Source: an uncultured Eubacterium sp.
GTDB lineage: Bacteria > Bacillota > Clostridia > Oscillospirales > Acutalibacteraceae
DNA length: 45,003 nucleotides
Direction: 5' to 3'
Assembly (NCBI GenBank): GCA_905233805.1
Contig: CAJOER010000002.1
Span: 1-45,003, forward strand
Both the position numbers and the translations under genes were made by a program. This document shows positions 38,629-40,920 of this stretch, piece by piece. The notes beneath the pieces are model-generated. The model searched no databases and was not told the origin of the DNA. It worked only from the letters and a program-made list of their open reading frames with translations. Each line of letters opens with the position of its first letter. Position 1 is the first letter of the stretch.

Positions 38629-39249
38629 ATGACCAAAATAGTTTCAATCTCAATGGCAATAATCATTATGCTGACGGCAGGTGTAACGGCTCCGAAAACT
38701 CACGCCACAGTGCCGCAGACAATTACTTCAAGCGTAAAAGCGAAATCTTCTTCCCACACGAATAAAAAGAAGAAAAAGCATAAACACAGTATGCCGAAAG
38801 GCAATATGGGCAAATGGTTTAAGTCAAAGAAAGCGCTCAGGAAATATGTAAACAAGGTTATGAAAAAATACAGCCGTCAGTATGAGAACGGCGAAATCAC
38901 CTGAGACGAATATGTACGCCACTGTCCTTACGGTTACGAAGCGTGGTCGTGCTCGTGCGGTAAGTGGTCAGGCAACTTCAAATATCATAAGGTCAGGAGC
39001 ATAGACATAAAATACTACATAAAATATGCCAAGTCTTACGCAAAGCAAATCGGGCTTGAATACGATAAGACCGCAACGGACTGCTGGGATAATCCGATAA
39101 CCGTAACAACGAAAAACAAAAAGGCTGTTGAGCGGGATATCAAATCACGGCTTAATCGCTATAAGAATTTCGAAGGCTTTGAAGGAATATGCATCTGGGT
39201 GCATACTGACAGCAGCGATAAGTATCTGCTCTATATCGGATACTGTTAA
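38629..39249 (+). pseudogene. Secreted basic hypothetical protein interrupted by one in-frame TGA (38902-38904)
   Basis: AAGGAGG RBS, signal peptide; frame continues GEIT*DEYVRHCPYGYEAWSCSCGKW...LYIGYC to TAA 39247-39249. Confidence 0.75.
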
Positions 39250-39261
39250 GGCGGTGATAAT

Positions 39262-39522
39262 ATGACTGTACTTGAAAATCTATACAACGGCAATATTGAG
39301 CCAACGGATTCAGAGAGCCTGAAAAACAATATGCGGTACAAAGAAGGACTCAGACTTGTCGGCAGACTGCAGGAAGAATTGTCTGCAACGCTGAACGAAG
39401 AACAAAAAGCAATATTTGAAAAATATCTCACTGCGGCGAATGAATTATCCATTGTCATTAACGAAGAAACCTTCAAAACAGGCTACCGCCTGGCAACGCA
39501 AATAATGATAGAATGTATGTAA
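39262..39522 (+). CDS. Small hypothetical protein (DUF6809-like)
   Basis: LENLYNGNI.P...L...LNEEQK...F..G..LA pattern. Confidence 0.75.
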   Translation: MTVLENLYNGNIEPTDSESLKNNMRYKEGLRLVGRLQEELSATLNEEQKAIFEKYLTAANELSIVINEETFKTGYRLATQIMIECM

Positions 39523-39816: not shown

Positions 39817-39845
39817 TTGATAATTTTAAAACACTATGATATAAT
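39817..39845 (+). promoter_or_regulatory. Strong sigmaA promoter with extended -10
   Basis: TTGATA-17-TATAAT with TG at 39837-39838; predicted TSS ~39851-39852. Confidence 0.75.
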
Positions 39846-39850
39846 ATGAT

Positions 39851-39984
39851 TGCTAAATATCATTCAAATTAAATAAGCCCATCTGCTGTAATTTTGCAGC
39901 AACTACGTGCGTGTATTTTTATTATGTTAAAAATACAGGCTCTTATTCACGCATGTTTTTAGATGGGTTGAATGATGTTTAGCA
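39851..39984 (+). ncRNA. Putative structured ncRNA / leader (candidate RNA antitoxin)
   Basis: 17-bp closing stem 39851-39867/39968-39984, stems 39878-39884/39961-39967, 39885-39900, 39905-39913/39948-39956, 39912-39921/39928-39937; mismatches are G-U. Confidence 0.65.
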
Positions 39985-40039
39985 GCAAGTGAGCTATGTA
40001 TTTTATTGCGTAGCTTAACGGCTGCGCATTTTTTGTTTT
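39982..40039 (+). terminator. Terminator-like hairpin between structured RNA and HEPN gene
   Basis: GCAGC...AGCTATGTA-TTTTAT-TGCGTAGCT...GCTGC followed by ATTTTTTGTTTT. Confidence 0.5.
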
Positions 40040-40052
40040 GAGGGGTGAGAAT

Positions 40053-40598
40053 ATGGCAAAAAGAATGCCGCTAAAAAAATGCAAACACCAAGCGGAAAAC
40101 TACCATCCATATCTTGTCGTTCCTTTAAATGCAAAGGTTAAGAATTTCAATAGGATTGTTAGATACTTTCAGTATGAAGCACCTGAAATAGATTGTGTGC
40201 ACTCTTCTGGGCCGTTATTAGATGAACAAACAGTAAATGATATCTTTTCTGAAATGATGCAAAGAGCAAAAATGCAAAATCAATTTATTTTTATTCAAAA
40301 GCTTCAGCCCAACAGTTTGAACAGGTTTCATTTAGAAGGTAATAATATTTGTCTTAAGTGTCCTCGAATGGTGTGTAAAATAAGGAAAGATGAAACTGAA
40401 CTATCTGCTCTATTAAGACATATAAGAAACACTTTTGCACATGGTCGAACTTATGTAAAGGGAACTAAGAGCAACACATATATCGTTTTGGAAGATTTGG
40501 AAAGAATAAAAGGTAAAGAAAAAATCACAGCAAAAATAGTTGTTACTAAATCGATTTTGGAAAAATGGAAAGCGATACTTGAAAACCTAGTTTTATAG
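40053..40598 (+). CDS. HEPN-domain putative RNase (181 aa)
   Basis: ATG 40053 behind GAGGGG; LLRHIRNTFAHG gives R125-x4-H130, followed by beta strands and a C-terminal helix. Confidence 0.72.
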   Translation: MAKRMPLKKCKHQAENYHPYLVVPLNAKVKNFNRIVRYFQYEAPEIDCVHSSGPLLDEQTVNDIFSEMMQRAKMQNQFIFIQKLQPNSLNRFHLEGNNICLKCPRMVCKIRKDETELSALLRHIRNTFAHGRTYVKGTKSNTYIVLEDLERIKGKEKITAKIVVTKSILEKWKAILENLVL

Positions 40599-40644: not shown

Positions 40645-40920
40645 GTGGGTTCGTTTAGGGGATGCATTGCTGTTCCGTTAGAAAACTACTGCAAAAAATA
40701 TCTTGACGGAAAATACAGCGCAGATGAAATCGAGTTAAGCGAGTTTTATGAAGCAATGCTATCAATAATTGATAAATTGAGTCTTAACGGCAAAGCAGAT
40801 ATTGAAGATTTCAAATCGAAGTATTTTGAAATACAAAAAAAGAGTTATACCGAGTTGAACTTAGAAGAATGTATTAAAATTTTTGAAGAATTTAAGAGAA
40901 TTACAGGAGTAAAGCTATGA
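40645..40920 (+). CDS. Small acidic helical hypothetical protein (possible immunity/antitoxin)
   Basis: GTG start behind GAGGGGG; 91 aa; stop overlaps next ATG (ATGA). Confidence 0.6.
   Translation: MGSFRGCIAVPLENYCKKYLDGKYSADEIELSEFYEAMLSIIDKLSLNGKADIEDFKSKYFEIQKKSYTELNLEECIKIFEEFKRITGVKL

Follow-up and report, generated by a model that had tools for sequence, protein, structure and literature searches.

Transcription attenuators that choose among an anti-antiterminator, an antiterminator and a terminator are well known in Firmicutes, and include the pyr leader of Bacillus subtilis with its regulator PyrR and the expression platform of the S-box. Among transcriptional riboswitches, ZTP and c-di-GMP-II form pseudoknots in which a loop pairs with the 3' tail beside the terminator. 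The anti-antiterminator type of attenuator is defined in general terms in PMC8632103. A different arrangement is described for RCd22/AbiF of C. difficile, where the leader of a type III toxin-antitoxin system also attenuates in cis (bioRxiv 10.1101/2025.04.15.648962); AbiQ/ToxIN and AbiV serve as further type III systems for comparison (PMC13064643). In addition, the table rows of Fremin and Bhatt (2021, PMC8040213) list two 49-51-nt Clostridia candidates, HMP2_2359 and HMP2_3994, near LRR_5 and HTH_XRE genes.

Our study concerns an RNA that we consider likely to be a conserved promoter-leader-terminator transcription attenuator, judging by its sequence features. As in the pyr and S-box attenuators, three competing helices make use of a common switching strand, and its upstream capture lets the terminator form. 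Unlike in those systems, the anti-antiterminator is here a long-range pseudoknot formed by the tip of a rod that measures ~30 bp and varies in sequence, there is no Rfam-matching PyrR-type loop or aptamer, and every copy has its own promoter and accessory surface or defence targets. With the preQ1-I riboswitch it has in common that a loop pairs with the 3' tail beside the terminator and that folding is likely pause-dependent; it differs from preQ1-I, ZTP and c-di-GMP-II in its helix of 13-16 bp, its toehold, its displaceable mask, the absence of an evident conserved pocket and the lack of an Rfam match.

The window, by which we mean the whole analysed stretch of 45,003 nucleotides of an uncultured Eubacterium sp., carries the RNA near its right-hand end, with all of the following features on the forward strand. 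A sigma-A-type promoter (39817..39845: TTGATA, 17 nt, extended -10 TG-n-TATAAT) matches the consensus at 11 of 12 positions, and 139 of 146 homologues have the same elements, always equally far from the RNA. From the spacing, transcription is predicted to start at G39852, 7 nt past the -10 box; at this column, 83% of the 146 copies of our first alignment (set 1) have G and 16% have A, and 96% of the 88 copies of our second (set 2) have G. The predicted start is the first base pair of the closing helix P1. This helix of 16-17 bp (39851-39867 with 39968-39984), identified by folding and covariation, is separated from the P2 rod by an AU-rich 5' bulge of 10 nt, the hinge (39868..39877), which has a median length of 5 nt in homologues and contains AUA in 113 of 144. 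P2 spans 39878..39967 and has 7 + 8 bp (39878-39884/39961-39967 and 39905-39912/39949-39956); across homologues its median is 17 bp and its sequence varies. The side hairpin within it (39885-39900) is absent from most homologues. At the tip, P3 (39913..39936), a weak U/A hairpin that sits beside an 11-12-nt 3' bulge, masks segment Y (39930..39942), composed of an A-tract, TACA and an exposed toehold, GGCTC (39938-39942). Downstream of the rod lie an alternative hairpin H (TGTT/AGCA with loop TAGC; 39976..39987), whose formation competes with the P1 foot, and the switching strand X (39990..40004), which ends in an invariant U-tract and has as partner either Y, in the pseudoknot, or Z, in the antiterminator. 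The antiterminator hairpin X:Z occupies 39990..40017 (11 bp, 39990-40000/40007-40017), and the intrinsic terminator, a 9-bp stem followed by U6, occupies 40007..40034. The folded stretch 39851-39984 is the 5' part of this ~185-nt promoter-RNA-terminator unit (39817-40034).

The first gene behind the leader (40053..40598), preceded by a Shine-Dalgarno-like sequence between it and the terminator, encodes a pEK499_p136-like HEPN protein of 181 aa (PF18736, 27.2 bits against a cut-off of 26.6). It is followed by a gene for a 91-aa protein (40645..40920) with a weak phage gp38-like match below the cut-off (PF22130, E 0.0015) and by the gene for a large secreted protein with Big_3 domains, recognised by domain match and open at the contig end (40917..45003). 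Terminator prediction up to 41000 gave none between the genes behind the leader. Immediately upstream of the leader, a DUF6809 gene (39262-39522, forward strand) has a strong terminator of its own; a DUF6809 gene is also the first downstream gene of the RNA at two other loci (L263 and L284). Further upstream, 38629-39249 (forward strand) is a frame of 206 codons for a predicted secreted lysine-rich protein, with one in-frame TGA at 38902-38904 and open beyond it, and is likely a pseudogene or an assembly error.

The original prediction had proposed nested stems in 39851-39984, and all of the segments that it listed are present where it placed them. This stretch folds at -51.6 kcal/mol (z -8.86), a value reached by 0 of 200 shuffles and, among 134-nt windows sampled along the contig, by 0 of 180; its reverse strand is weaker (-42.2, z -7.23). 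Selection on the forward-strand RNA, likewise proposed, is borne out by the family alignments: G-U outnumbers A-C by 83 to 8 in P1 and 171 to 3 in the terminator, and by 62 to 2 for P1 in the other alignment, which is why we take the forward strand to be the selected one. The inner helices do exist, but with 8 + 9 bp and not the proposed 9 + 10, because ACGTGCGTG (39905-39913) and TGTATTTTTA (39912-39921) overlap by two bases. AATAAG and CTTATT, suggested as pseudoknot partners, are complementary at this locus but do not form a conserved pseudoknot. Their pairing is worth just -2.9 kcal/mol and they are separated by 15 bp of helix; across 144 homologues, the energy of cognate hinge:loop pairs was no better than that of swapped ones (64 of 200 permutations as good), and the advantage in run length was marginal (12 of 200 as good). 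The complementarity reflects the A-richness of the hinge and the U-richness of the loop. A pseudoknot there is, but its partners are the rod tip, 39930-39942, and the tail, 39991-40004. The conserved form of the downstream hairpin is 39990-40017; the extension that overlaps P1 at 39982-39984 is seen in the single-sequence minimum-energy fold and lies outside the set of conserved helices tested. A switch or attenuator role had been offered as an alternative, and it gains strength from the covariation of the antiterminator and the terminator.

A BLAST comparison of the leader matched other genomes of the family over long stretches, and 25 sequences were used to build a model, R1; a pattern scan gave at least 120 genome loci and 15 viral-contig loci. 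Set 1 comprises 146 non-redundant rows from 162, after one truncated row and rows more than 92% identical were dropped; 117 of them were found via the pattern, which fixes Y and the P1 foot, and 29 are pattern-free. Set 2 comprises 88 of the 91 rows found in the genus by the model alone. Pairing was compared with that of row shuffles, which ignore kinship. In set 1, the observed and shuffled percentages of paired cells were 95.8 and 77.0 for P1, 94.8 and 93.1 for P3, 88.0 and 83.9 for the toehold, 97.9 and 94.5 for the rest of Y:X, 92.8 and 89.7 for the antiterminator, and 99.2 and 89.9 for the terminator. The corresponding values in set 2 were 98.9 and 73.3, 91.2 and 86.1, 83.5 and 78.5, 92.2 and 89.0, 90.4 and 88.7, and 99.9 and 90.3. 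For each of these six elements, in both sets, 0 of 500 shuffles did as well; among the 29 pattern-free rows, between 0 and 9 of 500 did. It is important to note that, because the shuffles ignore kinship, the small margins of the antiterminator and P3, many of whose columns hardly vary, are suggestive only. P1, the terminator and Y:X show many double changes besides their margin over the shuffles; in the P1 core, where 98.9% of cells are paired, double changes occur at 12 of 13 pairs. Covariation among homologues, which the original prediction had called for, is strong in the nested stems.

Further comparisons concern the two competing states. Among 92 matches found by the model alone, the off-state structure is paired in 98.4% of cells, against 84.5% in shuffles and 31-52% in slid controls, with double changes at 25 of 34 pairs; the alternative helices (P3, H and the antiterminator) are paired in 91.1% against 87.0%, with double changes at 15 of 25 pairs. 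Hairpin H is paired in 92.5% of cells against 83.0% in the 88 copies of set 2 (0 of 1000 shuffles; double changes at 4 of 4 pairs); set 1 is uninformative on this hairpin (47 of 1000 shuffles over all rows, and every one of 1000 when the 29 pattern-free rows are taken separately). The columns of Y:X rank at the top in an unsupervised analysis of mutual information (z 15.6 and 11.2). Cognate Y:X pairs average -15.3 kcal/mol and swapped pairs -12.4 (275 unique copies, with 12 of 290 rows unparsed); for the antiterminator X:Z the values are -12.3 and -10.4. Inside tandem arrays, the cognate Y:X is better in 24 of 34 comparisons and unfavoured in the other 10, including 5 ties, of which 4 are due to identical X. 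Several long variants are devoid of P3 and keep a Y:X of 14-16 bp written in wholly different letters, so we regard Y:X as the core and P3 as a dispensable mask. By sequence and covariation together, the unit consists of the promoter, the ~30-bp rod P1-hinge-P2, the Y:X pairing, the antiterminator X:Z and the terminator, with a gene starting ~20 nt behind it.

We propose that the long rod would fold first and bend at the hinge, and that the emerging X would dock on the exposed toehold and displace the weak P3. This exchange may take place while transcription pauses at the invariant U-tract. While X is held by Y at the rod tip, the terminator would be free to form, so that the default would be off and the main product a ~180-nt RNA. 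Were X to pair with Z, the terminator's own 5' arm, the antiterminator would form and RNA polymerase would read on, which would require Y to be kept away from X. A protein binding the tip or the conserved P1 foot would most likely be what withholds Y; a small ligand or a purely kinetic, leaky (stochastic) partitioning would be alternatives. As Y starts with an A-tract and X ends in the invariant U-tract, the Y:X helix may in its own right be a pause or a first terminator. A strict equal-arm fold-back of the rod was considered and is unsupported, since the lengths of P1 and P2 show no positive correlation (rho -0.27). At this locus, the leader would throttle the HEPN gene, the small gene and the large surface protein.

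In the window, the rod and P3 combined with the antiterminator (-64.2) are equal in energy to the rod and P3 combined with the terminator (-64.4), and Y:X (-13.8) outweighs P3 (-7.3). Y:X exceeds P3 in 122 of 125 copies (median -13.5 against -5.5 kcal/mol), and the terminator exceeds the antiterminator in 107 of 125. By these helix energies the attenuator is probably off by default; this is an estimate, because the pseudoknot penalty and the hinge bend are left out of them.

Model R1 has matches in 29 of the 41 genomes that represent the genus (0-15 copies per genome) and in 40 of 151 sampled Clostridia genomes at E<=1e-6; at E<=1e-12 it matches 25 of 150 genomes other than the window's own. 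Six weak, long matches were inspected and all are true members, and the named carriers among the matches listed are mostly gut and rumen Clostridia. The own genome holds a second copy (L047; G000:C54:13158-13327, reverse strand) ahead of a gene for a SHOCT-domain protein. Rfam 15 at the gathering threshold gave no match in the window and left the RNA unmatched at 18 other loci, and a relaxed threshold around the RNA gave only noise (E>3). A BLAST search with one homologue returned 0 plasmids and 2 unannotated phage records, and PADLOC gave only weak matches on the window. Our literature search, which included passages of PMC11109978, returned no description of this RNA; the alignments of PMC8040213 lay outside the comparison, so it may have been listed there earlier as an unnamed candidate. 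HMP2_2359 and HMP2_3994, compared by their table rows alone, may be fragments of it; unlike our RNA they are short, and those rows contain no switch model. Judging from its distribution, the RNA is a widespread, uncatalogued leader of gut Clostridia. About a quarter of the sampled Clostridia genomes, mostly metagenome-assembled from gut or rumen where named, carry it, often in 5-15 copies before surface and defence genes, and it is likely a major unrecognised control of commensal surface display and of the restraint of risky nucleases. Its architecture, in which a rod delivers a toehold-initiated strand exchange as anti-antiterminator, is unusual, and the trigger, once found, would reveal a new signal or regulator.

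An ORF led by a Shine-Dalgarno sequence follows the RNA in 119 of 146 copies, within 40 nt in 87, at a median of 22 nt past the U-tract, and 74 of 117 downstream proteins are signal-peptide-like by a crude hydrophobicity rule. Among 114 first downstream genes scanned, 19 encode BspA-type LRR_5 proteins, 5 XRE-type HTH proteins and 1, the window's own, this HEPN family. A scan of 60 further proteins (59 from first genes and one PIN7 control) added LRR_5, CHAP, subtilase, EcoRI-type and MmeI methyltransferases, YspA SLOG, DUF6809, TM2 and SHOCT proteins. Genes behind the RNA encode mostly surface or membrane proteins, along with XRE regulators, methyltransferases and PIN7 nucleases; those behind different copies are unrelated to one another and share no common metabolic theme. 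Helical proteins of 50-65 aa follow the RNA at six loci (L148, L150, L025, L112, L322 and L323), with no Pfam match among the four scanned; this family is a candidate for an autoregulated trans factor. XRE proteins of 63-64 aa stand behind the RNA at three loci (L032, L093 and L118), and in L032 and L093 that RNA is the second of two tandem copies.

A purely cis role has to be reconciled with the 27 of 146 copies that have no Shine-Dalgarno-led ORF within 150 nt and with upstream tandem copies that are gene-less. One alternative is that the terminated ~180-nt RNA works in trans, as a decoy for a regulator or as a type III-like antitoxin, for example of a short clade of PIN7 proteins, with attenuation as a second role, as in RCd22/AbiF. 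Whole promoter-RNA-terminator units stand in tandem in at least 13 arrays. In a four-copy array, the arms of the gene-less copies are only 46-64% identical and yet complementary, whereas tails are 90-95% and spacers 80-89% identical, so the rods are kept despite their divergence; against this, faster change of the rod is also expected from a constraint on structure only, and one array junction fits simple tandem duplication. Most copies, moreover, precede surface proteins. The array at L232 (2864-3833 of G419:C60) has four tandem units ahead of a PIN7 gene, and each of its spacers carries a similar 16-codon ORF with no evident Shine-Dalgarno sequence that ends in the -35 box of the next promoter. 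At another locus (L314), the Rfam 'drum' RNA lies at 391-508, ~200 nt upstream of a three-copy array.

PIN7 itself occurs in 12 of the 41 genomes of the genus, with 20 matches, 17 of them parsed as whole genes, and its residues D7/E9/N10/D70/D95 are invariant. Each of the 12 short PIN7 genes is preceded by the RNA (immediately in 10 cases, after a ~200-nt insert in one, and with the terminator alone visible in one), compared with 2 of 5 long ones; as a lineage, this PIN7 subset alone resembles a type III layout. The short clade (L241, L245-L255 and L258) consists of stand-alone proteins of 123-130 aa, up to three per genome, mostly with one common terminator sequence. On the other side, PIN7 was not found in the window's own genome (G000, 78% complete) or in G416, G417, G402 and G426, four genomes that are 97% complete and carry 4-15 copies of the RNA. 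PIN7 as a required trigger is unsupported on this account, and we regard it as a target and not a requirement. We hold a role in trans to be rather unlikely, and give it some weight because gene-less arrays keep the structure and short PIN7 genes always stand behind the RNA. Slightly more credence, still as an unlikely proposal, goes to a combined scheme in which the leader would gate both surface antigens and defence enzymes, and the terminated RNA, abundant and multiplied by gene-less tandem arrays whose stems have diversified, would either titrate the controlling protein or act as antitoxin to PIN7 proteins as a new type III-like family of toxins.

Compared with the attenuator that we favour, a metabolite or ion riboswitch of a new class, with its ligand site where hinge, P1 foot and tip meet, seems quite improbable. 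The pseudoknot and expression-platform layout would suit it, as would the invariant C-G pair and conserved linker at the P1 foot and the AUA hinge; the many copies per genome ahead of surface genes are also a habit of riboswitches for signalling molecules. However, Watson-Crick partners explain nearly all of the invariant bases, which lie mostly in the alternative helices; the AUA hinge and the CA linker remain. A conserved multi-helix junction or purine-rich loop is also absent, there is free variation in P3 and in the loop, and no cyclase or biosynthesis genes appear among the Pfam matches of the 114 + 60 downstream proteins.

It is very improbable that the element acts as DNA and shuffles gene cassettes, either as a recombination site of folded single strands or as a MITE-like repeat, its RNA features being incidental. 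Its multi-copy, patchy occurrence (0-15 per genome), its variable neighbours on both sides and the tolerance of G-T, which also fits single-stranded DNA, would agree with such a role, but the beginning of the stem coincides exactly with the transcription start predicted for a conserved promoter, the element is closed by a U-tailed terminator that overlaps an antiterminator, the arms are not conserved in sequence, and the Pfam matches of first downstream genes include no recombinase or transposase.

That the RNA serves the neighbouring HEPN RNase as its dedicated type III antitoxin, acting through an AAUAAG/CUUAUU pseudoknot, is hardly credible: the order of promoter, RNA, terminator and HEPN gene is that of RCd22-abiF and the RNxxxH motif is intact (R125, N126 and H130 invariant in 66 of 66 aligned relatives), but the RNA is found at 0/7 plus 0/19 loci with HEPN relatives, that pseudoknot is unconserved, no direct repeat family among 20 listed falls within 39851-40034, no Rfam model matches, abiF included, and different cargo takes the same place in a related genome. 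In that genome, G416, a homologue of the window's surface protein (51% identity) is encoded two genes behind a close copy of the leader, and an unrelated predicted membrane protein replaces HEPN. These two observations, the 0 of 26 loci and the unrelated gene between leader and surface-protein gene in G416, leave the type III antitoxin raised by the original prediction unsupported at this locus. With RCd22/AbiF, the locus does share a SigA promoter, a structured RNA, a terminator, a promoter-less predicted RNase gene and probable cis attenuation; it differs in that the RNA is untied to the HEPN family, lacks an abiF motif and internal repeats, and precedes mostly non-toxin genes.

The closest leader copies in three further genomes (G202, G253 and G403) also precede other genes. 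As far as gene neighbourhoods can tell, the HEPN gene is exchangeable cargo, and the large Big_3 surface protein is likely the leader's long-term target. HEPN as a partner of the RNA was rejected on the 0 of 26 relative loci, their BREX-1 neighbours and the other cargo in G416. The structure model of the HEPN protein has a pLDDT of 96, and a fold search of 48,161 chains yielded no clear counterpart, the best hit having Z 3.3 (rmsd 6.1, 84 aligned); no HEPN relatives were confirmed in viral contigs. At all 8 loci tested among the 19, the neighbours of the HEPN relative are BREX-1 PglX or PglZ, which makes it a candidate accessory effector of BREX-1. These relatives lie inside BREX-1 loci (L184-L202; for example L190, L191, L193, L195 and L197), often between two pglX pieces or beside pglZ.
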